Part shown: positions 1 to 26,487 of the stretch, piece after piece
Layout: each line of letters opens with the position of its first letter
How positions within the stretch are numbered: the first letter of the stretch is position 1
From: Candidatus Scalindua sp.
GTDB lineage: Bacteria; Planctomycetota; Brocadiia; Brocadiales; Scalinduaceae
Direction: 5' to 3'
NCBI GenBank assembly: GCA_031316235.1
Contig: JALDRA010000001.1
Span: 2,130,001-2,162,000 of the forward strand
DNA length: 32,000 bases
Position numbers and translations under genes: made by a program
Notes under the pieces: model-generated
What the model saw: only the letters and a program-made list of their open reading frames with translations
The model's database searches: none
What the model was told of the DNA's origin: nothing

Positions 1-476
1 AAACTTTCCTTGTCTAACCAATTCCATTGAGAGGATTTTGACAGATATCCTTTATGACTGCTCCAGGCATAATCCTCTAATCGGCTAACTATTCCAGCCC
101 GTAGAGGATTGTGGTGAATATACCTTACCAAAACGGTAAGATAATTTTCACTGTCTAATAAAATAGATTTATATCTTCCTCTGAATAATTGTCCATCATG
201 CCTATTCCTACGATTGTATCTCTGAGTATAAACACCATTTATGTGCCTCATGCACCGTGAAAGATTCCCTTCGGGTGTCTGGACTAAAAGATGGTAATGA
301 TTAGACATTAAACAATATGCAACTATTTTAATATTCCATGCTGATACCGTTTCCTTTAATATCTCAATAAAGGCTATATAATCTTCTTTCTTTGGGAATA
401 TGGTTTCACGGCGACGCCCTCTATTCATTACATGATAGTACGCACCCGAGTATTGTATTCTGAGCGGTCTTGACAT
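1..476 (-). CDS. REP-associated / IS200-like Y1 (HUH) tyrosine transposase, RayT type; 3' end lies beyond the left window edge
   Basis: Absent from the ORF track because it runs off the window. My translation of the minus strand from ATG 476..474 gives MSRPLRIQYSGAYYHVMNRGRRRETIFPKKEDYIAFIEILKETVSAWNIKIVAYCLMSNHYHLLVQTPEGNLSRCMRHINGVYTQRYNRRNRHDGQLFRGRYKSILLDSENYLTVLVRYIHHNPLRAGIV... It has the HUH motif (NHYHLLV) and the Tyr region (RYIHHNP) typical of this family. Confidence 0.8.
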   Translation of the reverse strand, partial: MSRPLRIQYSGAYYHVMNRGRRRETIFPKKEDYIAFIEILKETVSAWNIKIVAYCLMSNHYHLLVQTPEGNLSRCMRHINGVYTQRYNRRNRHDGQLFRGRYKSILLDSENYLTVLVRYIHHNPLRAGIVSRLEDYAWSSHKGYLSKSSQWNWLDKES

Positions 477-544
477 TGCAACAATATAACACCATCAAGT
501 AGTATAGTCAATAGCAGACTTGACCCCTTTACCGACCCCTTTAC

Positions 545-581
545 CCGGATTTTATCCGAAAACAATCATGAGATGAGTATA
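545..581 (-). repeat. MITE family A, partial copy (left arm only, reverse orientation)
   Basis: ccggattttatccgaaaacaatcatgagatgagtata matches the reverse complement of the left arm of full copies (compare 26296..26332 tatactcatcttacaatggttttcggataaaatccg). Confidence 0.7.
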
Positions 582-1173
582 TCATGTGATGAATCGAGGA
601 ACAAACCCTGATAGAATCTTTTGCAAAGAGGAAGGTTATTCTCAACAGAAGAATATGAGATATTTTTAATATCGGTGAAAGTGTATTGTGTCAAACCAAA
701 AGAGGTAACCAAAATATACCCCAATTATTTGCAATATCATTGTCTGGGGAGCTATCGGGATTAAGTTTCCCTGGGCTTGCAGAAAGAAATAAAATAGCAA
801 CTTATAAGACTGTAACATCAAATGAAAGAAAAGGTAGAGAGTAGCATAAAGAAAAAAACAATATGCAAGGCTTATGCAGTCAAGAGGAGGATTGACCCCA
901 AACTCACTATAATAATCATTACACACCAGATGTTTTCCAGCAGTTGTTAACAGTCCCTTCGCAGTTTACACTCAAGAATTTAATCAGAGCTCCTTGATGA
1001 AATAATTATGATGCAAATTGATATCTATTAGATGGATTGTAATATCAAGGTCGTGTGTTAGCTCTATAATCAGCTGCCGGGATATACCGAATGGCTAATA
1101 TATTACGTTCTTTGTTTTTAGCATGTAGCCATGTATGGACTTGACCCCTTTACTTTATTCTCTGTAGTAACCA

Positions 1174-1779
1174 TCATCTACAAGAGCAGATGGTTTTTTT
1201 TGACCCCAGCAAATTATCTTGTGTAATATCTGGAAAGTCATCTACATAAGAGAATCTAGTGAAACGGTGACTAGCTGGTTTAGGTATTATAATTGGAATT
1301 GATAATTGTTCTACATTTGTCACCTTGCACTTAACCCTGATCCATTTTTTCCTAAATCCATCCCGGACTTCTTCTAAGGCTGCATCATAATTTTCAAAAG
1401 AATTACATGCGACTAATAATTCATTAGCCCTTCTATCAAAAAGTTTCTTATCTTCAAAGTAATTGATTATTGACGAATATTCATCTTCAGTTATTAATTC
1501 GGCATCATGATGAATACCAATGATTATAGATTCCTTAGTTTCTGGATGTATTGAAAAAAATCCTATACTAAATTTTCCATTATTATCATTTAGCTTCTTA
1601 GTTTGTGGTGTTTTATATGTATAAGGGAATATATATCCATTATATTCATCGGATAACTGAAAATTCCACTCTTCGTGTCCAAATCCTTTCTCACCTGGAA
1701 AGCCCCCCTCATATGTTGAACCAGACGGTAATTTCCATCCCCTTGTATTCCAACATATCCTTTGCATTACTCTTAACAT
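1174..1779 (-). CDS. hypothetical protein, 201 aa, directly downstream of brxA on the same strand; N-terminal CWNxxGWxxPSG...GFGHEEW motif
   Basis: ORF track entry. It lies 70 nt after the brxA stop on the same strand. The N-terminus is RICWNTRGWKLPSGSTYEGGFPGEKGFGHEEWNFQ. No catalytic motif was recognised. Confidence 0.65.
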   Translation of the reverse strand: MLRVMQRICWNTRGWKLPSGSTYEGGFPGEKGFGHEEWNFQLSDEYNGYIFPYTYKTPQTKKLNDNNGKFSIGFFSIHPETKESIIIGIHHDAELITEDEYSSIINYFEDKKLFDRRANELLVACNSFENYDAALEEVRDGFRKKWIRVKCKVTNVEQLSIPIIIPKPASHRFTRFSYVDDFPDITQDNLLGSKKTICSCR

Positions 1780-1849
1780 TACGAATTACCTTCTTTTAAT
1801 ATTTTTACTTACAGTTATAATTTTTAATCAGCTTAATTTCATACTAATT

Positions 1850-2560
1850 TTAGTGTTTCATCAATAAATGATTACGGTTGACATCTCGTATATATTCCCA
1901 TTCATTGGAGTGATATTTCTTTGCAACCTCTTTCAAGTCTACCTCTTTGAAATAATATAAAAGGGATGAATCAATACTTGATAAATCTACCATTGCTGAC
2001 TTTAAAAATACTTTAGAATAGAGCATCAGGAAATTCTTTGCCTGTTCATTTAACATTGAAGGTTTATTCATTAGATGATACTTTTGTGTACCCGTCTGCT
2101 CAAGTATTTTAAAATGAACTAAGGTTCTTAAGAATGATCTGACAGACCGTTTTACAACATCTCGATCTCCATATTCATGAATCATCTTTTTGGACAGGAT
2201 TGCTGATGATAGCTGATTTGTATGATCAAAGCTTAACCTGATCTTTTTTGTAATAAATCTTGTAATTTCATAATCCATTAATATCTTTATAAGGAAGAGT
2301 GGGAGTATCTGTTCGAGTGAATATTTTTCTACCCACTCCATAATTATATTATTTTCAATAATATTTCTTTTTTCTTGAAACGAATATACAAAACTGCGAA
2401 AAATAACAGTTCGTGCTTTTCTCTTACCTTCCTTACCGACTAATTCTTTAGCAATATCCTCAAAAGGCAGATTATATTTAGATGGATTCTCGCCCGGCTC
2501 GATCATTTTAAGTGTTTCATAAATCCATTCCGGCTTTAATGGTCTGTCAAATCCTATCAA
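1850..2560 (-). CDS. brxA: BrxA-like small BREX protein (assigned by position and size)
   Basis: This 236-aa ORF is the last gene of the BREX block. Its TTG start (2560..2558) overlaps the pglZ TGA stop (TTGA). A small BrxA after PglZ is the expected type 3 BREX order. The sequence itself was not independently recognised. Confidence 0.55.
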   Translation of the reverse strand: MIGFDRPLKPEWIYETLKMIEPGENPSKYNLPFEDIAKELVGKEGKRKARTVIFRSFVYSFQEKRNIIENNIIMEWVEKYSLEQILPLFLIKILMDYEITRFITKKIRLSFDHTNQLSSAILSKKMIHEYGDRDVVKRSVRSFLRTLVHFKILEQTGTQKYHLMNKPSMLNEQAKNFLMLYSKVFLKSAMVDLSSIDSSLLYYFKEVDLKEVAKKYHSNEWEYIRDVNRNHLLMKH

Positions 2561-3987
2561 GATATAACCTCAACAAATGGTACAATTAATTCATCCAATG
2601 TGATTCCTCCATGAGTAATTTCAATCTTATTTTTATATGAAAATGACGTGCGGTCTTTCGCCAATAATACTACTTTATCTTTTACAAAGGGAATTTCATA
2701 GATATTCGTATCATAAAATTTAGACAATTCGCTCCTTACAATAATAGTAGCACGCTTACTCGACGTCTCAATTAAGTATTTATCAATAACCTGCCCGTTA
2801 CCTGTAGCAACTAAACATCCATGATCTGAACAAATCCATATTTTATAACCTTCCTCTTTTAACAACATCAATTCTTTTTTTATTGAGGATTTTTCCAAAT
2901 AATTATGCACGTTCATAAAATACATTCCTTTATTCTTTTCTGTTGGTGGGAGAAGAGTTTTATGTGCAATATAGTCAAATAGATTATAAATTATTTTTAC
3001 CGTATCAATCCCAAGCAGCTGTTCATCAGATTGCAACTGTCCTTCCCGGTAAAAGCCAACACTCCTTTCATTAAATATCTCTTTGAAGGCTTTATCTTCA
3101 TTTTGCGATGTGATTTCATAAACTTTATTAGCACTGCCGTAAAAAATGGCTGATCTGGATATCCTGGTCATGGTTGGAATAAGTGCAAAAATATATTTCT
3201 CCTCAAAAGAAAAATCATCTTCTGTTAAATACTCTTTCAGTAAATGCCATTCTGCAACACCCATACCATCAAAACAGACTAAAGCGATTTTTGAATCGTT
3301 CTTGTTCGTAATGTATTTAACAATCCGATCAACAGTTTTAAAGTTGATTGTAGATTCATAGAAAGAGTTTTTTAATATTCCGTTTAATATAGGCTCTCCT
3401 GTAGCTTTATCTACTTTTTCAACCAATGCATCATCCGGTTCTTTACCTGACCTATAACTACAGTAAATAAATCTTCCCCATTTATCTCCTAACGTTAAGA
3501 TATCATCATATGTTTTTACGTTCTGGCAATCTTTTATTATTTGTTCCTGACAATATTTTGCTACTTTTTTAAACCCATATCTTTCCGAATTAATCAGTAT
3601 CTGTCTGAAATTGTGCCTGGAGATAAGTTGTAAGGAGTTTTTGTCAAGTTGATAATCGATAAGTTGAACCAACTGCCGAACAGATATTTGGAGTAATATC
3701 TGTGGTTCAATATCTAAAGGAAGCTGATTCTCATTAAATTCAATGATATTTACTTTTGTTCGTAAATATGCGGGCAAAGAGAGACTTTTTGATATGATTA
3801 TTTGATTGTTACCTGTCAAGCCAGAAAGAACTTCTTCGACGGATTGTGTGATCATGTAATTTATTGCAGTATTATTCAGATACTTCGTGAACTCAGGGCA
3901 ATGTAAAAGTCCAATCTTGTCTATGATTACCTTGTTAGAATTATCATGTAATTTTAGCCTGTTTATTATAATGTCCTGCCAGTTCAA
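2557..3987 (-). CDS. pglZ: PglZ-domain protein (alkaline-phosphatase superfamily), BREX core component
   Basis: 476 aa. PglZ-like motifs: KIALVCFDGMGVAEW, FALIPTMTRISRSAIFYG, KIWICSDHGC and the C-terminal ITHGGITLDELIVPFVEV. The TTG start 3987..3985 follows the brxHII TGA stop directly. Confidence 0.85.
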   Translation of the reverse strand: MNWQDIIINRLKLHDNSNKVIIDKIGLLHCPEFTKYLNNTAINYMITQSVEEVLSGLTGNNQIIISKSLSLPAYLRTKVNIIEFNENQLPLDIEPQILLQISVRQLVQLIDYQLDKNSLQLISRHNFRQILINSERYGFKKVAKYCQEQIIKDCQNVKTYDDILTLGDKWGRFIYCSYRSGKEPDDALVEKVDKATGEPILNGILKNSFYESTINFKTVDRIVKYITNKNDSKIALVCFDGMGVAEWHLLKEYLTEDDFSFEEKYIFALIPTMTRISRSAIFYGSANKVYEITSQNEDKAFKEIFNERSVGFYREGQLQSDEQLLGIDTVKIIYNLFDYIAHKTLLPPTEKNKGMYFMNVHNYLEKSSIKKELMLLKEEGYKIWICSDHGCLVATGNGQVIDKYLIETSSKRATIIVRSELSKFYDTNIYEIPFVKDKVVLLAKDRTSFSYKNKIEITHGGITLDELIVPFVEVIS

Positions 3988-6843
3988 TCAAATAAACTCC
4001 ACGTAAGCCAATTGATACAATTCCATTTTTGGCACAATATTTCTTTGCAATTTTAATTTTTCTAGCTGTTCAGTCCTATCTTTTTCCAGAGATTTCAATT
4101 TTGCATCACGAATATTGTCTATTTGTATTTTTGAAAAAGCATTCTGTTTAAATCTGAGATAATCATCATATTTCTGTTCATATTGATTTATTTCATTAAG
4201 CCATGTAAGTTTCACGGCTGTAAATATTTCATTCGCCTTTTCTTCCGCATATTTGAGAGCAGTCTTAGAGATGTTTTGTATATCATGCTTGCACGCATAA
4301 TTCTGTACAATTTGAACATCATTAATTATATTCTTTTCTAAATAATTGCTGATGCGGCTGTTATTAAACTCCTCATCTTCCATAAAAACAGTAATAAGAG
4401 ATGTTTTATGTTTATCAATCTGATTACTGGTGAATAACTTATAAATGAACCAATATCCGTTAATATTCTGAAATTTATTAATCTTAAAATGCATTGCCGA
4501 GACCGTACCCAGTCGTGAATTTTTCTTAAGATCGGTATGTATATTTTTGACGAGTGGATGATCCATGTTTACAAATTCGATATTCCCTTTTTTTGTAGAT
4601 GCTGAATTATCAAAAGTTACATTTCTGTACGTGACAGGATCATTCTCGTCGTCATGAAACGGATTGGTGAAATAACAATATTCCCCTTCATCTTTGTACC
4701 ATTTAACTTCGATACCCTTAAATGACAAATAGTTTATAACCAGATGCTTTAAAATAGAATTCAGATTACTATTAACAAGGCGTTGCGGATCTTCAGTCAA
4801 CTGGGAAAATGGTAATAACAGTTCGTCCTTATCTAAAATGTCTTTAGCCCGTTTATAAATCTGAGCTGCAATTTGATCGAGTTGCTCATTCTCAATATCT
4901 TTTATACGAATAGCGTCAAAATAGATTCGGTCAAATGAAAACTCTTCCTGCAAAAGTGTTATGACATCCGCATACTTATCATCACCGAACTGTATCTTTA
5001 TCTTTTTCAGTTTAACCTCCAGAATCTTTCTAACCCGATCCTCGATGGTATCTGTTAAATGAAAATTAAAAATCAGAGCATTATGCGTTTGCCCAATTCT
5101 GTCAATACGCCCTATTCGCTGTTCCAGGCGGGAAGGGTTCCAAGGCAAAGCATAATTTATAATAAAATAACAGAATTGCAGGTTAATACCTTCACCTCCT
5201 GCATCAGTAGAAACAAGTATTTGATTGGTCGTTCTGAATAATTCAACCTGTTTTACTTTTTCTTCTCTGGATAATAAACCGTTAATAAAGGAACAGGAAT
5301 AGCCGAATTTGCTTAGGAACTGGATAAGTGCATCCTGAGTTGCTCTGAATTCAGTAAAAATCAGACATTTTAAATTCGATTCTTTCTCTCGATTCTTGAC
5401 CTCTTCTATTATCTTTATGAGCTGGCGAAATTTTATATCTCTGTATGATACCGATAGCTTTTCTGCTAAACCGATACATGAGGCAACAAAGTTCTTCTCG
5501 ATTTCGATATCTTCTCTATTTGTAAAGGTTGACTTCTTTAAAAGTTCATCAACTTCAAGTTCCTCTTCATCTGAGTTGATATTTTTTTTATATTCGATCT
5601 TTTGTGTTTCATCTTCCAGAAATGTCTTTCGTTTCTTCATAGCATCCAATAATGCAAAACTGCTGGAAGATACTATTCGCTGGTAGAGCATTACCAGAAG
5701 TATCAATATCTGATTATTATTTCGTTTGGCAAGATTATAATATTTGGCGGTATATTCAGTAACAAATTCGTACAACTCAATCTCTTCTTTGTTATCAGTT
5801 CTGGTTCGATTTATTTCTATTAGTGAGGTAATACGGTGCTTGAAGATCCTGTTACCGTCAAAATCAACCACAGCTCTCTTTTTGTTCCGTACAGCGACTT
5901 CCTGAACCAGAGCGGGTGTTAATGACTTAATACTCGTGAATAATATAGGATCAATTAATCGTAGAAGATTTAAGAACAAATGCTCATCACCCTGATGTGG
6001 TGTGGCGGTGAGCAGCAACAGTACAGGAATCGATTCACTCAACTTCTCACCTAATTTAAAACGGGCAGATTCGTGCCCGTCACCATGCTTGCTTAGCTTA
6101 TGGGCTTCGTCTATGATTACAATATCAAATCCGGCGTCAGTAATATCCTCAAAGATATGTTTATTATGCCATTTCCTCCGATTCGTATCCTCTTTGTCCA
6201 GACTTTCATCAATTTTCAATGGTTTAATCGAATCTATAGAAGCAATGATTCTATCATGAAGTTTCCAGACATTGACATCTTCACCATAACTCTGTTTTAA
6301 GACACGGACATAATCCTTTGTGTAAATAACAAATTTCTCATTAAACTTGTCGACTAGCTCTTCATGCCATTGTAGAACAAGGCCGGATGGCACAACGATC
6401 AGGATTTTCTTAGCAATACCTCGAAGTTTGAATTCCTGATACACAAGGATAGCTTCAATTGTTTTTCCCAGACCCACTTCATCAGCAATAAGGCTGCGGG
6501 GTTGAAAGCGATTCATTACAAAATTTACCGTGAGCAATTGATGTGGGAGAGGCTGGATTCTATAATTGGTGGATGTAATCACCGCATTTTCAGAAATATT
6601 GGCCTGTAAACGCAGCAACATATGCCTGGCAAAGAAAAGAGAAGGGATATCAATGCTGGCTTTCTGCATTAAAGCGATAGAATCTTCTTCGATCTCTAAA
6701 TCGTCAGTCTTTATGGAAACAGTATTGCCGTCTTTAAATAAGATTTCTGTATAATTTTCACCAAAAAGCTCACTAAACCCGATAATAGTACCAATACCTC
6801 TGTTTTCATATAAACGGCTTTTTATTTTATCTCCGATTTTCAA
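3988..6843 (-). CDS. brxHII: SNF2/DEAH-family helicase, BrxHII-type
   Basis: 951 aa. Motif I is IADEVGLGKTIEA, II is DIVIIDEAHKL and III is LLLLTATPHQG. Motifs V and VI are STDAGGEGINLQ and LPWNPSRLEQRIGRIDRIGQ. The called start is TTG 6843..6841, 7 nt after the pglXI stop. Confidence 0.85.
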   Translation of the reverse strand: MKIGDKIKSRLYENRGIGTIIGFSELFGENYTEILFKDGNTVSIKTDDLEIEEDSIALMQKASIDIPSLFFARHMLLRLQANISENAVITSTNYRIQPLPHQLLTVNFVMNRFQPRSLIADEVGLGKTIEAILVYQEFKLRGIAKKILIVVPSGLVLQWHEELVDKFNEKFVIYTKDYVRVLKQSYGEDVNVWKLHDRIIASIDSIKPLKIDESLDKEDTNRRKWHNKHIFEDITDAGFDIVIIDEAHKLSKHGDGHESARFKLGEKLSESIPVLLLLTATPHQGDEHLFLNLLRLIDPILFTSIKSLTPALVQEVAVRNKKRAVVDFDGNRIFKHRITSLIEINRTRTDNKEEIELYEFVTEYTAKYYNLAKRNNNQILILLVMLYQRIVSSSSFALLDAMKKRKTFLEDETQKIEYKKNINSDEEELEVDELLKKSTFTNREDIEIEKNFVASCIGLAEKLSVSYRDIKFRQLIKIIEEVKNREKESNLKCLIFTEFRATQDALIQFLSKFGYSCSFINGLLSREEKVKQVELFRTTNQILVSTDAGGEGINLQFCYFIINYALPWNPSRLEQRIGRIDRIGQTHNALIFNFHLTDTIEDRVRKILEVKLKKIKIQFGDDKYADVITLLQEEFSFDRIYFDAIRIKDIENEQLDQIAAQIYKRAKDILDKDELLLPFSQLTEDPQRLVNSNLNSILKHLVINYLSFKGIEVKWYKDEGEYCYFTNPFHDDENDPVTYRNVTFDNSASTKKGNIEFVNMDHPLVKNIHTDLKKNSRLGTVSAMHFKINKFQNINGYWFIYKLFTSNQIDKHKTSLITVFMEDEEFNNSRISNYLEKNIINDVQIVQNYACKHDIQNISKTALKYAEEKANEIFTAVKLTWLNEINQYEQKYDDYLRFKQNAFSKIQIDNIRDAKLKSLEKDRTEQLEKLKLQRNIVPKMELYQLAYVEFI

Positions 6844-6850
6844 GATTTAT

Positions 6851-7251
6851 TTAAAATCCTTCCACTTTTAATTCCGCCACTTCAATAAACTCACTCAGTT
6901 CTGAATCGTTCTCTATGATCTTGTTGTCAAGGCGCCTGGCCAATGTCAAAATATCCTGAAACCGTTCCTTCTTATAACAATATTCAAAACCGAATATGAC
7001 AGCCTGCTTACGGAACTCCTTGATCTTCTTTTTAGAACCTTTGGCTTCCAACAGCAAAGCCTCGAATTCTTTCAGTAATTCTCTCTCACGCTTTTGCATA
7101 ACAGTTAATTTTTCATCTTCGGTTTGCGGACGACGGTATTTATCACCCTGCAGTATGAAATTATTATCTAGCAATTCACGTAAATCAGGAGTTTGATCAC
7201 CACTAATATTGGCCACTTTGGTAAAATCGGGATGAATAGTTTTAAAATCTC
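6851..7251 (-). pseudogene. pglXI: 3' fragment of pglXI (C-terminal 133 codons), cut off from the rest by the IS630 insertion; the ORF track shows it as 6851..7216 with a GTG start
   Basis: The reading frame stays open from the IS junction (..RDFKTIHPDFTK-VANISGDQTPDL..). It joins in frame to the 5' fragment once the IS and one TA copy are removed. Confidence 0.85.
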
Positions 7252-7267
7252 TAGTGTCACGTCAAGC

Positions 7268-7296
7268 TTGAATTGTCGTATATAATAGATTATAAT
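7268..7296 (+). promoter_or_regulatory. candidate sigma70-type promoter for the IS transposase
   Basis: TTGAAT (7268..7273), a 17-nt spacer, then TATAAT (7291..7296), about 40 nt upstream of ATG 7334. GGGAG at 7320..7324 is a possible RBS. This is a motif match only. Confidence 0.35.
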
Positions 7297-7333
7297 ATCT
7301 TCATAATTAAATTTTTTTCGGGAGATTTAGATT

Positions 7334-8466
7334 ATGAAGAAATACATAGTAACTCTTGATTGCGATGAACGTAACAGGCTTGTTGCTTTAACGTCTAAAG
7401 GGATGCATAGATCCCAAAAGATACTCAATGCATTACTATTATTAGCTTGCGACCAGGGTGAGTATCAGGGCAAACGTTCGACCAACGTTGAAATTGCCCG
7501 TGTTCTTAAAATAAGCATGAAGAAAATTGACCGGGTAAAGAAAAGATTTGTTGAAGAAGGTTTTGAAGTTGCGCTTAATGGACGCAAAGGCAATCGAGTA
7601 TATGAAAAGAAGACAGATGGTGACTTTGAAGCCCACCTGGTAGCGTTAAGTTGTAGCGAGCCGCCAGAAGGTTTTGCAAGATGGTCTCTGCGATTATTAG
7701 CAGACAAGGTAGTAGAACTTGAATATACTGACAAAATTTCCCACGAAACAATACGCCGTATATTAAAAAAAACGAAATTAAGCCCTGGCAACGAAAAGGT
7801 TGGGTAATACCGCCAAAAGAAAACGGCAGTTTTGTCGCTAACATGGAAATGGTGCTGGATGTATACAAACGTCCATATGACGCTAAGTATCCAGTAATAT
7901 GTATGGACGAGTCACCAAAGCAACTTATATCAGAGACAAAGATGCCAATTTCTGCTTCACCAGGGCAACCGGCTAAGTATGACTATGAATATAAGCGTTG
8001 TGGAGTGTGTAATATTTTTCTGGCCTTTGAACCATTGGCCGGGAAACGTATAGTAAAAATAACAGAAAGAAGAACTAAACAAGATTGGTCCTATTTTCTG
8101 GAAGACGTTGTTAATACATATGGTCATGCGAACAAAATAACATTAGTAATGGACAACTTGAATACTCATGATGCTGGATCGTTGTATGAAACGTTTGTGC
8201 CGGATAAAGCAAAGGAAATTTTAGATAAATTTGAGTTTGTCTACACCCCAAAGCATGGTAGCTGGTTAAATATGGCAGAAATCGAGTTGAATGTACTTGC
8301 TGGACAGTGTTTAAACAGGCGGATTGATAATATTACAAAGATAAAAAAAGAAGTACAGTCATGGCAGAAATTTAGAAACAATAAGAAATCAAAGGCTAAC
8401 TGGCAGTTTACTACGATTGATGCCAGGATAAGATTATCTAAACTTTACCCGACACTTGATGATTGA
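7334..8466 (+). CDS. IS630-family DDE transposase encoded in two frames (ORFs 7334..7807 and 7843..8466), joinable by a -1 shift on the A8 run at 7765..7772
   Basis: The N-terminal ORF is helix-turn-helix-like. The second frame is open from 7771 and reads NEIKPWQRKGWVIPPKENGSFVANMEMVLDVY, so the join gives ..RRILKK-NEIKPWQRKGW.., the conserved IS630 linker. DDE candidates are VICMDESP, LVMDNLNTH and WLNMAEIE. The joined product is about 377 aa. Confidence 0.85.
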
Positions 8467-10587
8467 CGTGACACTAGGTTCATCTATGTAAGAATTAAGC
8501 CAGATAAGCGCTGATTTTTCATCGGATACAAACATGTTCATTTGGCCTCTCCGTATGTCACCAATGCCTTCCAATTTCATTTTCTTTTTATATTCGCGGT
8601 AAGTTTCTATCTGATCTGGATTGAACCAATAGTCATCTTCATCTGCGAAGTTCTTTCGAAGCATTTTGTAAAATGTTGAAGCATCATATTTAACAGTATA
8701 ACTGCGTTGAACATAAAAGGAGAGCATCTTAGAATAAAGCATCTGCTCTGTACGTTCAATAGATGGCTCTGGAGAAATGTGCGATAGATGCATTTTGATA
8801 AATTCATCTTCCAATCCTTCTCCTGTCATATCCAGAAAAATTTGCTCAAATTTTTGCCTTGGTTTATAGGCCGTAATAATTAGATCACTATCTACACTAC
8901 CTGGAGCAGTCATTTGTTTAAATGTTTTTTGCTTCTTATCGAGAAGTGAAACGGAAGCGATTATGAAACCGGCTTTAGAAATAGAGTTTTGTAAAATGTT
9001 CCATATTTCAGATTTCGAATTGTGAAATTCGATAGTAATCCAACGATTTGGTTTTAGTATTCTATAAAATTCGCAAAAAGACTGTTCTATAACCTTACGG
9101 TAATGTATTTCATCTTTTAACTGTACTTTGTTAACAATTGCTTCATTACTATTATTTGTTAAAACTTTTAACCAAGATTCCCAAATGTAATTAAGTTCAG
9201 AATACATTATATTTCCACCAAAAGGTGGATCGACGAAAATATAATCAACCGAATTCTCAATTATCGGCAAATTTGTTGAGGAACCCGTATTTATAATCGT
9301 AGTATTTTTTGCATAGCCTAAGTATTTCGATATTTTTTTTATTTTGTTTGTTAAACTATATCTATAATTTACTTCTGAAATTTTCTTTCCAACATATAAG
9401 GTTCCTTTTAAATACCTATTGACTTGAGAGTAAGATGCCTCAAAATATCTATTCATTTTTGTCTGACCAAGCATCACGGATTGTAACCAAAACAATAATA
9501 AGGGTTGAATTTCTTTATCTGATTTTTTAATTTTATAGAATAAACAAGAAGTAACATATAGATTTCTTTTTGTATAAAAAGAATCAATAGTTTTTAATCC
9601 ATGTGACTTTCTTGGTTGAGCTGTATTGCTCCCATCAGGCAAGATATTCGTGGGAAACCAATATGGTATTTCAAGGTTATTACATTTTGAAATTATTTCC
9701 AAATCATATTGCTCTGGTTTTTTAGTATATACTGCTCCTTGAAAAGTATAATTAAGTAGTACTGGAACTAAAACAGCATATCCATTATCATTGTATTTCC
9801 TTTTCAAGGTCGTATTCGTGATATCCGCTTTGCATTCTTGGCAAAATATTATGTCCTTATTTCTTTTAAGTTTTTCATCTACACCAATATGCCAAAATAT
9901 GTTTTCTTCTTTGCAATAAGGACATAAATATACATCACTCCATACTGTGTAATTAATCCTACCAAATTCTGTATTATTAATTGTTTTATTCTTTGAGTTT
10001 GAATGAATTGTTTTGAACATCCATTCGCATTCAGAGTCTAATTCATTTAGAATTGCGTTAGATCTTTGTTCGAAGAGAGTAATATTGTGTTTTTTATTGT
10101 AATTCCATGAAATAAAAGTTGCTATTGGTGAAATATCTGAAAGTATACAAAACCTTTTACCCATATTTTTTAAATTACCGATTGCGCTTTGCACATATTC
10201 ATTATTTTCACATAATGCTGCCGCGACACCTGTCATTCCAGTTCCACAAAAACCATCAAAAACAATATCACCCGGTTTAGTATAATGTAAGATTTTTCTT
10301 AATATTACTTTAGGTGGTACTTTTGTGTGGTACGTATGAAGGTTGTATATTACATCTCCTTTTCCTTCAACTATATCATCAATAAAAGGTGTTATATTAA
10401 AATCATCCTCGTATTCATTATATTTTTTACCATATTCCTTAATAAAATCATTAATATATGGATTAGGGCAGGCTGTGTAATATGGCGGGTCAGATAATTC
10501 TAAAATATCTTCATCTTTACCAATGGGAAAACCTTCAATATCTCGTACGGAATCGAGCAGTTCTTTAAGCGGTTTAAAATTTTTCAT
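8434..10587 (-). CDS. pglXI: PglXI-type Zn-ribbon N6-adenine DNA methyltransferase, 5' fragment (704 native codons plus 13 IS-derived codons and a stop)
   Basis: SAM-binding motif I is DIVFDGFCGTGMTGVAA. The Zn ribbon is CPYCKEEN...FCQECK. Catalytic motif IV is IFVDPPFGGN. Native sequence ends at ..YIDEP (codon 8478..8476); the last 13 residues, SVTSIIKCRVKFR, are read from the IS right end. Confidence 0.8.
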   Translation of the reverse strand: MKNFKPLKELLDSVRDIEGFPIGKDEDILELSDPPYYTACPNPYINDFIKEYGKKYNEYEDDFNITPFIDDIVEGKGDVIYNLHTYHTKVPPKVILRKILHYTKPGDIVFDGFCGTGMTGVAAALCENNEYVQSAIGNLKNMGKRFCILSDISPIATFISWNYNKKHNITLFEQRSNAILNELDSECEWMFKTIHSNSKNKTINNTEFGRINYTVWSDVYLCPYCKEENIFWHIGVDEKLKRNKDIIFCQECKADITNTTLKRKYNDNGYAVLVPVLLNYTFQGAVYTKKPEQYDLEIISKCNNLEIPYWFPTNILPDGSNTAQPRKSHGLKTIDSFYTKRNLYVTSCLFYKIKKSDKEIQPLLLFWLQSVMLGQTKMNRYFEASYSQVNRYLKGTLYVGKKISEVNYRYSLTNKIKKISKYLGYAKNTTIINTGSSTNLPIIENSVDYIFVDPPFGGNIMYSELNYIWESWLKVLTNNSNEAIVNKVQLKDEIHYRKVIEQSFCEFYRILKPNRWITIEFHNSKSEIWNILQNSISKAGFIIASVSLLDKKQKTFKQMTAPGSVDSDLIITAYKPRQKFEQIFLDMTGEGLEDEFIKMHLSHISPEPSIERTEQMLYSKMLSFYVQRSYTVKYDASTFYKMLRKNFADEDDYWFNPDQIETYREYKKKMKLEGIGDIRRGQMNMFVSDEKSALIWLNSYIDEPSVTSIIKCRVKFR

Positions 10588-10605
10588 ATGTCCTCTTCAT
10601 TGTTA

Positions 10606-13600
10606 CTATTTCAATTTAATACGAATACTACCTTCTTCCTTGTTCTTCTTCAGATCTTCAATGAGTGTAAGAAAGCTTTTACGCAGTTCATCTATGGTCG
10701 TCATTTGCTGGTCAGGAAAGAGTGTCTTAATAATCTTTTCGCTGTCAACCTCAACAATATCAATTTCCTTGAACAGCTTATTAATGGTTTGCACCATCTG
10801 CTGTGTTATTTGCTCAGGCAGGTTTTGTTCCTTCAAAATTGCCTCAATCAGCTGCTTATCTGATTTTTTATCCAGAAACTGCACGTTATCCCGATATTCC
10901 CGCATCTCTTTCAGCGTAGTCTTTTCATAGGATTCGTAGAGCTCTTCGATCAAATCTTCTATCCGGCTCAGCGTTGCTGGAATAGTACTGTAATTTACGT
11001 GACCGGGAAACAGACATTGCTGGCAGCGCACGGCCTTTTGTAAACTGTCTTCCAGATTATGATTTATGCATTGGTATTGTTTTAACTCATTCCATGAAAC
11101 AACCATCTGGTGGAACTTAACGTTATTTATGCAGGTCAAATGACTTAAGATTGAAAGCTTCTTAAATGTCTCACTATTTTGATATGTATTTAAGATATTC
11201 CAATCTACTTTTTTCCCAACATATTTTGCATGAGCCGATAAATACAAATCAAAGATGTAGATCTTCTTAAATTGCTGTATCTTGCCCTTAATAGGATTTC
11301 GTTGTGATCGATCACTAAGGGTTGGATAATCACTGCAAATCAATTCTATTTCATCCCTGAAATCTTTCAACGTTTTAAATTTCTGTTCATCAGTAACAAG
11401 CAACGAATGTTCCGTAAGAAGGTTTATGGCATCATTCATATAGCTGAAAGAGTCATGGATTAAGTCAAGGTATTCGCATAAAGCACCAGATAGATTCCGA
11501 ATCTTATCCAGAACGATGACAAAACCTGGCAATTTATCATTGAAAGATTCAATCTTTCCAAATTGCGTGGGATTATCAATATCGAGCGCCTTCCATTCAA
11601 TTTCTGTTATGGTATCAAAATTGTCCTGAATCTGTTTTATATCGACATAGATCTTCTGCTTCTGTCTTAACAGATCAATAGCATTCCCTAAATTCTGAAT
11701 ATCCTGTTGAATAGCATTGACTTTTTCCTTGTATTCTCTAAATGCCGTGAACCTCTCTTTTTCAATCGTTATTTTACTGCCGTTTAAACCGAGCGCGTTA
11801 AGTAATCGAGCAGCAAAATCATAGGTGTAATCTTCCTGTAAACGCGCATAGGCAATAGTCTCAAAAACAGCGAGTGATTTTATCTTCTCTCTAACGTTAT
11901 TAATGTCAACCTTATCTCCACCTTTTAATTGCAGGTATATTTTCCCGAGAACAGTCATCACAACCAGAACAAAGTAAACAACTTCAGCCTCCAGGCCATA
12001 ATCAGAATCTCCAAGTGGCGTTACTATTTCTTTTTCAATGTCAGTTACCTGTTGTTTCTTCTTTTTCAGAATATCCAATATACGCAAAGCTATCTTTGAG
12101 TGAGAGAGGTCAGGATAGCCTTGTGAATCCAGGAGATCTATACTGCTTAAAAATTGTGAAGTGTTCCTACCCAGATTATTAAAATCACCTCTGGTTAGGT
12201 CAGTGACAATGGAACTTAATGAAGTCCCAATATTTCTGGAAGTGAGTTGTATTGAATATACTGGATGAGAAGGATAACTTCCATTAAAAGGTTCATTAAA
12301 GAGTGAAGTTTTCAACTCCTCAATAACCTCAGAAACACTGCCACGTTCTCGACTCAGTATCTTCTTTATAAACTTCTGCTCACCATTTAGAGCACATTCC
12401 GCAAAATGAATGAGTAACATTGACAGCCTGTATTTAAAACCCGTTACGGTAGTACCTGCACGTTCATAACCGTTTATCCTTTCATCCAGTTTTCGGGACA
12501 TAATATGCTTCTGGAAATTGTTGTTAAGTAAACCCTTGATTGCTACGATCTCTTTCAGCAGCTCAACATTCTCAACAACTTCTAAATGCAACTTTATGGT
12601 CAATTGATTTTTGGCAAAGGTTTTGTCAATCTTTTCCACTAATGGTGAAATGAAGACGATAGAATAATCTCTTTCTGGAAGTGTGTTAAACTTACACCCT
12701 TTCCTGGCAAAGATAATATAACCATATCTGCATGATTTCACTGTCTGCCACACACATTCATCATCAAAGACATCAGCTTGACCTGAAATAGGATCCAGTT
12801 CCAGGATTTCCTTTAACTGATTAAATAGTTCTTCTTCCATTTCATCTTCAGAGACGGGTCCGGCTTTATCACTGATTTTTTGTTCAGGATCAATTCCGGC
12901 TTTTGTATCAAATCGAAAATATTCTAACCCTGAACTTTGATCCTTGAATGTCTTGACATATTCACCATCAGTCACCTCACGAATCTTTTTAATGATTAAG
13001 GCAATATTGTCCGCAACATTAAACAGCTTTTTTTGTGGTAAAAGCATTAAGTTATTTGCTAGTTCCCGCGCAGTTGACCCTTTTTCTCTTTTATTCCACA
13101 ATGAATAGATTGCCAAACCTTTGACAACTTTAAGAGCATCCAACTGGTATTTACTTTCCAATAGATTGATCTTCTGGGTAATGATATCCATTGCCTTAGA
13201 GATTTCGTATATCTCCTCAAGATTCTTCTTGTTGGGATTGTTTTCGAGTAAATTATATATATTGTCAAAAGTCAGAAAATACGGGAATTTTTCATTTTGA
13301 ATGTACTTAATCTCAGACGTGGCAAACTGAATAACTCCGCGTTTCTCGAAATAAGGGAGATCACTGAAAAGCTCAATCAGAAATGGGGTTAAGGGAAAGA
13401 GGTTTATATAATCATCTATATTTCTGCTGACATCTTCAATCTTTTCAGCAAATGGTTTAAATCTATTTTCTAAAGTATGTTTTTGTTCAGATGTTTTAGG
13501 AACGATACGTTCAGAAATTACTTTTTTAATATCTTCCTTATGGATGATAATGTTCTGGAAACGCTCTTGAATTCTTCCTATTTCACCGGCTATATCTTTA

Positions 13601-14805
13601 AATTTAGGACTTGTGAATACATCTTCCTGCATTGAGCCTACAAACATCATGTCTTGATCCTGGCATACCTGACCAATAACCCGTAAGAATTGCAGGTCGG
13701 CTTTCATATCCGCCTTTTGCTTAGTATCTAAAAAGTCAGAAATTTCATCAATGACTACCAGCAGTCCGGAAGTAGGCCCACTTTTCTTTATACTATCTAT
13801 AATCTTTGCAATATTCTCCTTGTCATCAAAATCCTTCTCAGGATCGAACTGTGGTATTGTAATATTATATTTGGATTTTAACTGCTTCCTGATTTTTCCA
13901 TAAAACCATTGTTTAAGCGAGGCACGCCCGGCGCCCAATTCAAATTGTACGGTCAGGAATTTTCTATCTAATTCTTTTAATTTATTTTTGATGTTTTCAT
14001 TGGATATTAAATCTGATAATTCAGGCTCTTCTATAAGACATACTAGAAAACCTACTAAGTGAGATTTACCGCTTCCATAATTACCGATAACAGTTCTTGC
14101 TTTATGTGTAGGTTTTTCAATATCTTCGAAGAACTCTATTATCTGCTGTTCGAGAGATTCTGAAATGATGTAACTGCTTACGATATCTTGCCTGCGATTC
14201 TTTTCTTTTAAATCAGAATCAATATCTACAACATCTTTTATTTGCTTAAAATTGAAAAGATGTCCAATAGCCTCCTCATCCCATTCAGATGGTTCTGCTA
14301 TTATGGATTGTTTCGGCTTATGGGTTTCATATTCATCTGAGATTTCGTTAATGTCTGCGACAACAATATCATTAATTTCTCGATCATAATAATCAGATTT
14401 TCCAACTTCGCCATAATACAGACGAGATCCCAGCTTCTGTTCGTCCTCCATAAAGATGATACAGTTTTTGTTACGTGAGTTATACTTAAATGCGCCTACC
14501 GGAGAAATCTTTGTAAACAGATCATGATAGAGGATACTGGGATTAGTTAAGATCAGTTTGTTCGGCTTGGTATTAAACCACTCCTTGATTTTTGGACCGA
14601 TCTCAATATCAAAGTCAACCTCTTCCGCCCCCAACTCTTTCCGCAGATTTAGCAGCTCACTTTCGACATCAATGAGCACCCAGCCGTCTTTCTTCAAAGT
14701 CTTAATTAGCATCTTTTTCTTTGCTTTGTTTTCACCAATTATGGCTAGTAATTTAAAGCGTAAAGCATCGGCTTGAGTTAAAAGAGTATTAATCCCGATT
14801 GTCAT
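10606..14805 (-). CDS. brxC: BrxC/PglY-type large P-loop ATPase with an extra N-terminal module of about 170 aa
   Basis: 1399 aa. Walker A is VIGNYGSGKSHL at residues 239-250 and Walker B is GLLVVIDEISDF. It is the first gene of the block. GGAGG lies 4 nt upstream of ATG 14805. Confidence 0.8.
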   Translation of the reverse strand: MTIGINTLLTQADALRFKLLAIIGENKAKKKMLIKTLKKDGWVLIDVESELLNLRKELGAEEVDFDIEIGPKIKEWFNTKPNKLILTNPSILYHDLFTKISPVGAFKYNSRNKNCIIFMEDEQKLGSRLYYGEVGKSDYYDREINDIVVADINEISDEYETHKPKQSIIAEPSEWDEEAIGHLFNFKQIKDVVDIDSDLKEKNRRQDIVSSYIISESLEQQIIEFFEDIEKPTHKARTVIGNYGSGKSHLVGFLVCLIEEPELSDLISNENIKNKLKELDRKFLTVQFELGAGRASLKQWFYGKIRKQLKSKYNITIPQFDPEKDFDDKENIAKIIDSIKKSGPTSGLLVVIDEISDFLDTKQKADMKADLQFLRVIGQVCQDQDMMFVGSMQEDVFTSPKFKDIAGEIGRIQERFQNIIIHKEDIKKVISERIVPKTSEQKHTLENRFKPFAEKIEDVSRNIDDYINLFPLTPFLIELFSDLPYFEKRGVIQFATSEIKYIQNEKFPYFLTFDNIYNLLENNPNKKNLEEIYEISKAMDIITQKINLLESKYQLDALKVVKGLAIYSLWNKREKGSTARELANNLMLLPQKKLFNVADNIALIIKKIREVTDGEYVKTFKDQSSGLEYFRFDTKAGIDPEQKISDKAGPVSEDEMEEELFNQLKEILELDPISGQADVFDDECVWQTVKSCRYGYIIFARKGCKFNTLPERDYSIVFISPLVEKIDKTFAKNQLTIKLHLEVVENVELLKEIVAIKGLLNNNFQKHIMSRKLDERINGYERAGTTVTGFKYRLSMLLIHFAECALNGEQKFIKKILSRERGSVSEVIEELKTSLFNEPFNGSYPSHPVYSIQLTSRNIGTSLSSIVTDLTRGDFNNLGRNTSQFLSSIDLLDSQGYPDLSHSKIALRILDILKKKKQQVTDIEKEIVTPLGDSDYGLEAEVVYFVLVVMTVLGKIYLQLKGGDKVDINNVREKIKSLAVFETIAYARLQEDYTYDFAARLLNALGLNGSKITIEKERFTAFREYKEKVNAIQQDIQNLGNAIDLLRQKQKIYVDIKQIQDNFDTITEIEWKALDIDNPTQFGKIESFNDKLPGFVIVLDKIRNLSGALCEYLDLIHDSFSYMNDAINLLTEHSLLVTDEQKFKTLKDFRDEIELICSDYPTLSDRSQRNPIKGKIQQFKKIYIFDLYLSAHAKYVGKKVDWNILNTYQNSETFKKLSILSHLTCINNVKFHQMVVSWNELKQYQCINHNLEDSLQKAVRCQQCLFPGHVNYSTIPATLSRIEDLIEELYESYEKTTLKEMREYRDNVQFLDKKSDKQLIEAILKEQNLPEQITQQMVQTINKLFKEIDIVEVDSEKIIKTLFPDQQMTTIDELRKSFLTLIEDLKKNKEEGSIRIKLK

Positions 14806-15375: not shown

Positions 15376-16239
15376 TTAGCTGTTTTTAATTGGTGCTTTA
15401 TCCAAATTATGCTGGGGGACATAACTCCAAAAGTTAATTGGACAATTTGGATTAAAAGTACTTAAAGATTGATTTGTGTCAATACTTACCCTCAGTTTCA
15501 TGCTTTTACATTTTTTAATTAATAAGTCTAAAGTTTTAAACCTTTCATTTTTTGCACTTGAAAAGGTAGTTTCATTAATTTGCTCAAAGAAAGTCATTTG
15601 AGGGCCGTTAATCATACTCCATGTTTTATATTCTTGATAATATTTTTTTGAAAAAACAGCTAATCCTGCAAATAAATCAGCTACTTGGCAACATGGTACT
15701 TCGTTCGAACAAATCTGTTCGAACTTATCAATTTTAAAAAGTTCTTCAGAAAAGGTATCTCCAAAGAGGGGATTCTCAAAAAAAGTACGTCTCTTTCCAG
15801 CATTGATTAAACAGTTTAGTATAGTTTCCCAATCAATTTCATGCTTTTCATCGGGATATATTTCCCATTTAGCCTCTATTTCTCTCTTTGACATCAAATT
15901 TTTAAGAAGGTGAAAAAACATTCTTGCAAAGTTTGCTTTGTCATCTCTGCCAATAACGCTATGTCGTCTGTCATAGGTATCCCAAATTATTGTATCGATT
16001 CTAATTTGTTTCTGATCTACATTATCCAATATGAAATTGATGAATTTTTCAGCACAAAACATGTATTTCGCAGATCTTACCTTTTGCCATTTAAACTCAG
16101 AAACTCCTGATTCTTTCAAAATATCAAAGAGATATTTATTAATAAATTCATTATTATTTTGAGGAAAAGAAATTGCGGCAATACTTCTATGTCTTTCTGC
16201 CGAAATATAACTTTCATCAGAGCATACAATATATTTCAT
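15376..16239 (-). CDS. DUF3800-like hypothetical protein
   Basis: 287 aa. N-terminal MKYIVCSDESYIS (a DES motif after a beta-strand) and C-terminal CCQVADLFAGLAVF (QxAD) match the DUF3800 pattern as I recall it. It is on the same strand as the BREX block, 570 nt upstream of brxC. Confidence 0.55.
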   Translation of the reverse strand: MKYIVCSDESYISAERHRSIAAISFPQNNNEFINKYLFDILKESGVSEFKWQKVRSAKYMFCAEKFINFILDNVDQKQIRIDTIIWDTYDRRHSVIGRDDKANFARMFFHLLKNLMSKREIEAKWEIYPDEKHEIDWETILNCLINAGKRRTFFENPLFGDTFSEELFKIDKFEQICSNEVPCCQVADLFAGLAVFSKKYYQEYKTWSMINGPQMTFFEQINETTFSSAKNERFKTLDLLIKKCKSMKLRVSIDTNQSLSTFNPNCPINFWSYVPQHNLDKAPIKNS

Positions 16240-16440: not shown

Positions 16441-17021
16441 TGAATAGTGAATTAGCGTTTTCGAATATTTTTTTATTCGGGATTCCTTTCTTACATTCAA
16501 CTTTATATAGGCGAGGTCACATTCATATTCCAATTGTCAAAAGCAGTCCCGGTTTATTACCGCATTATTATACACATTCATACCCTCTCGTTATCCTGAT
16601 CCCCCATTTCATAAGCATTGTATCTCTCTCAAAGTACGTATAGTGAAAATGTTTCACAAAGAAGAAAGGAGACGGGTTTCTCCTTAACTGCATATGAGAA
16701 TATGATAAATGTGATTCCGGTCTACGCTTTTGCTTTTAGAAAGAGTCTGAGAAACTGAGCTGCAATAGGCAACAGTATTTCTTTAAAACTTATCTAGTTC
16801 GAGTTAAATTTACGTATTACAGACTTGAACAGCTACAACCTTATGAAAAAACGATACCAATTTGTATTGTATGCTCTATTACATCTTTGAGAGATGTTTT
16901 TCAAAACTGACTGAAGTATCGACATAAATTTTCAAATCTTTGTTCATCATATTTAATTCTTATCTTAGAACGTAAGTAATTTTAAATTAAATAATGAAAG
17001 GCGAATATTACAAGAGTACAC

Positions 17022-17186
17022 AGTGTCGTCCGATTAGGTTTTTGCGTAGGCGGCTTTCGTCATACCCGAACGCCTTTATCGGGTATCCAGAGACTCGTTT
17101 CATCATAGATTCCCGCTAAAAACATGCGGGAATGACAGTTTTGGGGCAATAAATTAAATACGCAAAAACCTAACCGGACGCTACTG
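17022..17186 (+). repeat. MITE family B, copy 1 (about 165 bp) with a target-site duplication
   Basis: The 27-nt terminal inverted repeats are agtgtcgtccgattaggtttttgcgta and the reverse complement of tacgcaaaaacctaaccggacgctact, with 3 mismatches. A 10-bp direct repeat aagagtacac flanks it at 17012..17021 and 17187..17196. Internal hairpins are atacccga..tcgggtat and attcccgc..gcgggaat. Confidence 0.85.
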
Positions 17187-26140: not shown

Positions 26141-26295
26141 ATTATTAAGTATAATGAATGTCGGGATTATTTTTTCAAGCAGTGATGCTGAGACTTGCTG
26201 GGTGGCGTTACGACATGCTGCCTTGGATTGTCAACCCAGAGGAGTTGAGGCTGCCCGCTGAGCGTGATCAACCTGGTGCTTACGGATTTTGTATA

Positions 26296-26407
26296 TATAC
26301 TCATCTTACAATGGTTTTCGGATAAAATCCGAGATAAAATTGAGCGAGTATACCTTCACCAGGATTTGGTTTCCGGTAAAACCGGAAACCAAATCGGTTT
26401 TAGTATA
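26296..26407 (+). repeat. MITE family A, full 112-bp copy (A6), forward orientation
   Basis: Sequence runs tatactcatcttacaatggttttcgg...aaatcggttttagtata. It contains a perfect 15-bp stem (26363..26377 with 26381..26395) and a 3-nt loop. Confidence 0.85.
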
Positions 26408-26487
26408 TTTAAAGCTGTTTTCTGCTTTTGTCGGGCATTATCCAGCTTGTCGTTACATGTCCAATACAATCGACCGTTTTCAAAGAG

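Follow-up and report, generated by a model that had tools for sequence, protein, structure and literature searches.

Why does the methyltransferase gene of a phage defence operon appear in an annotated genome as two proteins, one on each side of a transposase gene? The question is raised by a stretch of 32,000 nt from Candidatus Scalindua sp. (contig JALDRA010000001.1, positions 2,130,001-2,162,000 of the forward strand; GCA_031316235.1), hereafter called the window, which holds a bacteriophage exclusion (BREX) operon of type 3 with an insertion sequence (IS) inside its methyltransferase gene pglXI. An initial annotation of this locus had proposed that an element of the IS630 family splits pglXI, that its removal in silico restores one long reading frame, and that the insertion would silence the defence system or serve as a reversible switch. 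The explanation that we favour overall, and with high confidence, is that the IS knocks out pglXI of this type 3 BREX operon. Below we set out the repaired gene and its intact relatives, the element and the operon, and the consequences that the insertion would have for BREX. The features discussed are collected in Table 1.

A methyltransferase gene in two pieces

Read on the minus strand, the native frame of pglXI stops matching at ..GAA CCT (8478..8476), exactly as the initial annotation had read the codons. It then continues through 13 codons encoded by the IS (SVTSIIKCRVKFR) to a stop at 8434, which gives an open reading frame (ORF) of 717 aa at 8434..10587. This product is identical to the NCBI proteins MDR4504922.1 and MEZ6155941.1. 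The other piece of the gene is annotated as a hypothetical protein of 121 aa (6851..7216), counted from an internal GTG. When the IS is deleted together with one copy of the duplicated TA (7254..8476, 1223 bp), translation yields a single minus-strand ORF of exactly 837 codons (704 + 12 + 121), and the predicted intact frame is thus obtained. The repaired protein reads ..YIDEP-RDFKTIHPDFTK-VANISGD.., where RDFKTIHPDFTK stands for the 12 restored residues. The junction sequence of the repaired empty site is CCTAGAGAT, in the wider context ..GAACCTAGAGATTTT...

When 5.8 billion protein clusters were searched, the 717-aa fragment itself came up, on a contig of 4.15 Mb and under the annotation 'Candidatus Scalindua sp. 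MAG, site-specific DNA-methyltransferase' (MAG, metagenome-assembled genome). The same search gave 119 homologues of 812-878 aa, which align with 97-100% of the repaired query and are 46-68% identical to it. The junction is colinear and ungapped in alignments of 18 and of 120 sequences, and the homologue consensus ..FLxEPKDFxTIHPAFTKIANISGD.. stands against ..YIDEPRDFKTIHPDFTKVANISGD.. in the repaired protein. The initial annotation had named two outcomes that would speak against a split gene, namely that the 121-aa part belongs to a separate conserved gene or that homologues end near residue 704. We found neither: the 121-aa part is not a conserved gene of its own, and none of the 119 protein homologues falls short of full length.

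The 90% cluster of the fragment has one other member, a protein of exactly 837 aa (P0121) that is encoded on a 9064-bp Logan contig (L001; SRR23332760). This orthologue shares 94.4% identity with the repaired protein and aligns with it over the junction with zero gaps. The contig carries the 3' end of brxC followed by pglXI, brxHII (951 aa), pglZ (432 aa) and brxA (236 aa), the same order as in the window. Its positions 1-3450 correspond to window 11926..8477 (92.4%) and its positions 3455-8886 to window 7249..1818 (90.1%). Since these two segments of the window adjoin in L001, precisely 1223 bp are missing from it.

At the level of genome loci, we counted 80 pglXI loci from species-representative genomes, 77 of which consist of one uninterrupted full-length ORF. 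An irregular pglXI was thus present in 3 of the 80 loci, a disruption rate of roughly 4%. Two of them (L053 and L070) have an in-frame stop each. In the third (L040, 9962-11935), pglXI breaks off near residue 675, and the locus is decayed and lacks a downstream helicase. This is the only truncated homologue, and a natural end of the protein near residue 704 can be ruled out.

The IS630-family element and its host operon

The element was found where the initial annotation had placed it, with 12-bp perfect inverted repeats at its ends and duplicated TA dinucleotides around it. The repeat GTGTCACGTCAA has exactly two matches in the window even when one mismatch is allowed, against a chance expectation of 0.08. 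An imperfect extension brings the inverted repeats to 28 nt with 86% complementarity (7251-7278 versus 8450-8477). Because the element begins with G, ends with C and is flanked by TA, CTAG stands at both junctions; the target before insertion can be reconstructed as ATCT-CTAG-GTTC. Both transposase ORFs lie on the plus strand, hence antisense to the BREX operon as had been noted. ORF A matches the Pfam families HTH_32, HTH_29 and HTH_28, together with HTH_23 under its curated cut-off, and ORF B matches DDE_3 with 104 bits (model positions 1-145/146). The frame of ORF B is open from 7732, and the fused transposase of 377 aa reads ..KKNEIKPWQRKGW.., with ..ILKK directly followed by NEIKPWQRKGW... 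The fused product corresponds to the NCBI annotation (P0128) and scores 247.3 bits on NCBIfam NF033545 transpos_IS630 (cutoff 100).

Passages of PMC2170065, citing Tenzen & Ohtsubo 1991, describe the IS630 family as moving by cut-and-paste with duplication of TA, and IS630 as favouring TA in CTAG. Expression by frameshift has also been described in the family (PMC5009743). The element resembles IS630 and ISY100 in its size (~1.2 kb), short terminal inverted repeats, transposase with helix-turn-helix (HTH) and DDE parts, TA target and multicopy state. It shares the TA duplication inside CTAG with IS630 itself and, with some members of the family, an A-run frameshift that makes the transposase (PMC5009743). 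Unlike IS630 and ISY100, it is a distinct and apparently unnamed Scalindua element in which just 12 bp of the inverted repeat are perfect. Judged by its ends, target and transposase genes, it agrees with the IS630 family in every respect that could be checked, and its transposition activity is putative.

A second copy of the IS, 99.9% identical over 7251..8477, is present on a 1376-bp Logan contig (L003) and has an unrelated left flank. Since the homology ends there, the limits of the element are CTAG..CTAG. By eye, the flank (L003 1-149, GC uncomputed) seems much GC-richer than the Scalindua window, and this copy may be located within a foreign region or belong to another organism of that sample. 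The identical 377-aa transposase is found under at least four protein accessions within the same genome, besides a 378-aa variant, and the cluster of ORF B has 45 members from many metagenomes. The left end of the IS (GTGTCACGTCAAGCTTGAATTG) gave 0 matches in the contigs of species-representative genomes, a set outside which the source genome lies; this 22-mer was moreover too strict a pattern, from which the L003 copy differs by one base. Look-ups of contigs bearing the 717-aa product or the 377-aa transposase gave none on record.

The compact minus-strand operon at 1850..14805 was assigned to BREX type 3 with PADLOC, Pfam and NCBIfam profiles, and the ORF map gives the gene order brxF::brxC-pglXI-brxHII-pglZ-brxA. 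BrxC is recognized by PADLOC (7e-198, 658 bits) and by Pfam DUF6079 (622 bits). There is no separate brxF gene: BrxF is present solely as the N-terminal domain of BrxC (PADLOC 1.2e-19; NCBIfam BREX_3_BrxF 53.2 bits, cutoff 50). Upstream ORFs of 1399-1411 aa are also present in five relatives (L005, L006, L018, L028 and L030), and BrxC measures ~1225-1260 aa in other type 3 loci. The methyltransferase is of the PglXI type, not PglX. The repaired protein scores 884 bits on the PADLOC profile PDLC02541 PglXI, the best stretch of which (residues 5-738) crosses the junction, and N6_N4_Mtase is its sole Pfam domain. Between pglXI and pglZ lies the helicase BrxHII (PADLOC BrxHI|BrxHII, 625 bits; Pfam SNF2-rel_dom and Helicase_C), the length of which is unchanged in L001 and in a further Logan contig, L002. 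PglZ is detected by PADLOC (4.5e-41) and Pfam (PglZ, 37 bits, cutoff 25). It obtains 176 bits on NCBIfam BREX_PglZ_3 (642 positions), under the cutoff of 250, as it lacks the N-terminal ~230 positions of the profile. By its gene content, the operon reads as BREX type 3 wherever this could be checked, with the BrxF-BrxC fusion and the short PglZ as two features of its lineage. We regard them as such and not as damage because they are common to the intact orthologous contig and other relatives.

Table 1. Coordinates in the window of the BREX genes, the insertion sequence and its parts
Feature	Position	Strand	Remarks
pglXI 5' fragment	8477..10587	-	native codons 1-704; codon 704 ends on the A (8476) of the TA
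pglXI 3' fragment	6851..7253	-	codons 705-837 and stop
IS630-family insertion sequence	7254..8474	+	1221 bp, GC 0.38
left terminal inverted repeat GTGTCACGTCAA	7254..7265	+	12 bp, perfect
right terminal inverted repeat GTGTCACGTCAA	8463..8474	-	12 bp, perfect
left TA target-site duplication	7252..7253		within CTAG 7251-7254
right TA target-site duplication	8475..8476		within CTAG 8474-8477
promoter-like TTGAAT-17-TATAAT	7268..7296	+	upstream of transposase start; consensus match only, 10/12
transposase ORF A	7334..7807	+	157 aa; HTH DNA-binding part
A8 run, -1 shift site	7765..7772	+	links ORF A and ORF B by slippage, ribosomal or transcriptional
transposase ORF B	7843..8466	+	207 aa from first ATG; DDE_3 catalytic domain
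brxF-brxC fusion gene	10606..14805	-	1399 aa; BrxF P-loop domain (~5-154) N-terminal to BrxC/PglY (DUF6079)
brxHII, SNF2-family helicase	3988..6843	-	951 aa, intact; start 8 nt past pglXI stop
pglZ	2557..3987	-	longest ORF 476 aa; 432 aa from 3855 by gene callers; intact, short
brxA	1850..2560	-	236 aa, intact; PADLOC BrxA 2.5e-46

Loss of the PglXI C-terminus and its likely consequences

As the initial annotation had stated, the insertion severs the last 133 residues of PglXI and leaves both catalytic motifs on the 5' side. Motif I (D111-G-F113-x-G115-x-G117) and motif IV (D453-P-P-F456), invariant in 120 homologues, lie upstream of residue 704, and so does a conserved Cys4 zinc ribbon (C222, C225, C249 and C252). 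The missing part contains 9 invariant and ~20 nearly invariant positions and is conserved to its final residue in the 120 homologues. An AlphaFold2 model built from the 120-sequence alignment (mean predicted local distance difference test score 86.9, predicted template modelling score 0.85) has a low-confidence linker at residues 673-684 followed by a folded C-terminal region of helices and a small sheet. In this model, helices 690-700 and 707-717 lie on either side of the cut, which is inside the C-terminal folded unit and not at its edge. A sequence search of the PDB gave just a 39-residue match to CcrM around motif I. A fold search of the PDB gave generic Rossmann methyltransferases only, at a query-normalised TM-score of ~0.1, and nothing beyond the Rossmann core. 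Judged from conservation and the model, PglXI without the greater part of this conserved folded domain is most likely inactive, or at least fails to integrate into the BREX complex, and silencing of BREX is a likely consequence.

The following course of events can be proposed. A multicopy IS of the IS630 family would have jumped, by cut-and-paste, to a TA that lies in a CTAG within pglXI, doubling the TA and breaking the frame after codon 704. The cell would then make only the 717-aa protein, which keeps the motif for binding S-adenosylmethionine, the DPPF motif and the zinc ribbon and is without the last 133 residues. The system would presumably lose both methylation and phage exclusion. The expression of brxHII-pglZ-brxA could also be lowered, because translation ends at 8434, ~1.6 kb before brxHII, so that coupling is lost; transcription towards these genes would have to cross the IS antisense to the transposase gene. 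Such polarity, already suspected in the initial annotation, is plausible. A search for terminator-like sites found none at 6500-10900. We also considered an outward hybrid promoter from the left end of the IS, as the inverted repeat ends with TTGACG towards the 3' fragment, and rejected it when no acceptable -10 element was seen by eye. A scan for minus-strand promoters at this end called nothing and gave no evidence against polarity.

Several points weigh against a simple knock-out. At the insertion site, L001 has CCAAAG where the repaired window has CCTAGA, and so represents the orthologue of a related lineage (~91% nucleotide identity) and not the literal ancestor or pre-insertion allele. 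The truncated protein keeps both catalytic motifs and could retain some activity. The need for the C-terminus is deduced from its conservation, and we found no dissection of a type 3 BREX system in the papers that we consulted. That methylation and defence are lost, and that polarity arises, is what we infer from the genes. Finally, the population may be mixed.

Could the interruption have been created by the assembly, by threading a repeat wrongly through pglXI in the MAG? The IS is indeed multicopy and short-read contigs break within it, but an independently assembled Logan contig seen in two samples (L002; SRR28338161) has the left junction too and is 100% identical over window 1088..7299. 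This contig stops 46 nt into the IS, as expected where a repeat breaks up an assembly of short reads. The chimeric 717-aa protein of both NCBI records contains the right junction, and the exact duplication of TA inside CTAG is what a real IS630 insertion would leave. We consider an assembly artefact next to impossible. It is also hardly credible that the IS is one lesion among several in an old, decaying BREX pseudogene cluster. Such decay might be suspected from the short PglZ, with its score under the NCBIfam BREX-3 cutoff, and from the relative with a truncated gene in a decayed locus (L040). However, the 432-aa PglZ and the BrxF-BrxC fusion recur in the relatives named above, and the five other reading frames are all open and of full length, with brxC, brxHII, pglZ and brxA free of any frameshift or stop relative to their orthologues. 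Relative to the orthologue, the ratio of nonsynonymous to synonymous substitution rates (dN/dS) is 0.14 for codons 1-704 of pglXI, 0.08 for codons 705-837 and 0.09-0.21 for the neighbouring genes, hence 0.08-0.21 over the operon, values that mostly mirror the history before the insertion. The severed 3' fragment itself is without stop, frameshift or excess replacements. Since the other BREX genes are intact and the severed C-terminus has not decayed, the insertion looks recent, and the initial impression that nothing else is damaged holds.

Given a real and recent insertion, the truncated 717-aa PglXI might still methylate DNA, in which case the insertion would uncouple methylation from exclusion or matter little. 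Residue 704 is preceded by motif I, by motif IV and by the Cys4 zinc ribbon, which would allow this, as would the low-confidence linker that separates the region of the cut from the core. Yet the severed residues are conserved to the last one and have been under purifying selection, the modelled cut is not at a domain boundary, and polarity probably harms the downstream genes. In type 1 BREX, moreover, the methyltransferase alone leaves DNA unmodified, other components being needed (PMC6326788). Continued methylation is in our view unlikely. The reversible switch put forward in the initial annotation is very unlikely: precise excision of the IS would restore the 837 codons and let the population hedge between defended and undefended cells in a form of phase variation. 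The excision is in frame in silico with nothing else damaged, the transposase looks functional, the IS is multicopy, CTAG is repeated at both junctions, and phase variation is known to act on pglX genes (PMC9122589 and PMC6326788). In-frame excision is nevertheless no evidence for a switch, because it is true of every fresh IS insertion. In ISY100, cleavage by the transposase is staggered and falls 2 nt within the 5' ends (PMC2170065), and the donor site is thus not resealed exactly; for this reason exact restoration is not expected of an IS630-type element and would need rare slippage across the direct repeat of just 2-4 bp, a poor substrate. Every record of this strain carries the insertion, and no empty site of the same strain was found. 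The exact repaired 837-aa protein is absent from a collection of 15 billion proteins, and a degenerate pattern back-translated from the repaired junction YIDEPRDFKTIHP had 0 matches in metagenome contigs (JGI). The sole intact allele found comes from a strain ~9% diverged. A wider speculation, in which BREX is toggled at the population level by exact excision or the truncated PglXI is kept as an orphan methyltransferase after the loss of exclusion, appears to us quite unlikely.

Surroundings, related cases and meaning

Several repeats and genes around the operon are recorded here in their own right. A dispersed intergenic repeat family of ~40-160 nt, with the internal palindrome GATTTGGTTTCCGGTAAAACCGGAAACCAAATC, occurs in both orientations at 540-582, 17830-17942, 19672-19885, 20619-20694, 21848-22055, 23958-24061, 24135-24172 and 26289-26415. 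The copies at 546-581 and 17907-17942 are direct repeats (94%) that bracket the whole BREX island, whose GC content is low (0.28-0.38, versus 0.40-0.44 at 22-32 kb). These dispersed repeats may be elements similar to repetitive extragenic palindromes or to transposable elements of the miniature inverted-repeat kind (MITEs), or they may be island boundaries. A second, MITE-like element of ~165-195 bp with terminal inverted repeats of 25-28 nt is present at 17021-17186 and 24606-24799 (~85% identity). Close to the operon, a 201-aa ORF downstream of brxA (1174-1779, minus strand) has no family match and is conserved on L002. On the other side, the operon is flanked by an unannotated ORF of 287 aa (15376-16239, minus strand) with a weak match to PADLOC PDC-M04A (3e-11). 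A tachylectin-like ORF (18220-19584, minus strand; 97 bits with Pfam) looks foreign, with a GC content of ~0.565 in a region of ~0.35, and contains an internal duplication of 300 nt (18374-18673 versus 18698-18997, 76% identity). A toxin-antitoxin pair made of a HepT-like RNase and a Polbeta/MNT nucleotidyltransferase (21006-21834, minus strand) adjoins the defence island.

Reversible switching of genes by an IS is known from IS256 in the ica operon of Staphylococcus and from IS1301 in siaA of Neisseria. In these cases the IS lies in a coding gene, its exact excision restores the frame, and ON revertants have been demonstrated. The Scalindua locus differs from them in that no revertant allele was found and that the IS630 mechanism disfavours exact excision.

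A closer parallel is offered by the methyltransferase genes of BREX systems themselves. Disruptions of pglX are frequent in BREX systems according to passages of PMC9122589, citing Goldfarb et al. 2015, and disrupted or phase-variable pglX is recognised in BREX/Pgl systems in the parts of PMC9122589, PMC6326788 and PMC4365076 that treat it. In those passages, as for the G-tract of S. coelicolor and the cases of Goldfarb 2015, the methyltransferase gene is hit and the remaining system is intact, as in our window. In contrast to these cases, the target here is PglXI of type 3, which belongs to another methyltransferase family (the N6_N4_Mtase type with a zinc ribbon), and the lesion is an IS instead of a homopolymer slip or a recombinase-driven inversion, with reversibility only a conjecture. 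In Halobacterium salinarum, strain R1 has a transposon-disrupted brxHII and strain 91-R6 a disrupted pglX, and both systems were proposed to be non-functional (PMC7002104). There too, a mobile element or lesion affects one BREX gene of an otherwise recognisable cluster, although the host is an archaeon, and neither the BREX type nor the gene that is hit is the one found here. The Halobacterium study could draw on a methylome without N6-methyladenine (PMC7002104), whereas our reading is taken from the genes.

We thus regard the split of pglXI as an ordinary knock-out of a defence gene by an IS, a known kind of event that involves no new mechanism. What is new is the instance, in a less-studied type of BREX and in an uncultured marine anammox bacterium. 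For annotation, it means that the 717-aa 'site-specific DNA-methyltransferase' and the 121-aa 'hypothetical protein' are the halves of one pglXI pseudogene. In comparisons of defence repertoires or methylomes, this Scalindua strain should accordingly count as BREX-defective. The methyltransferase gene is known to be the component of BREX that tends to be inactivated, and this locus supplies an example of type 3. Moreover, the pair of related Scalindua lineages, one with a disrupted and the other with an intact pglXI, could serve to find the methylation motif of type 3 BREX.

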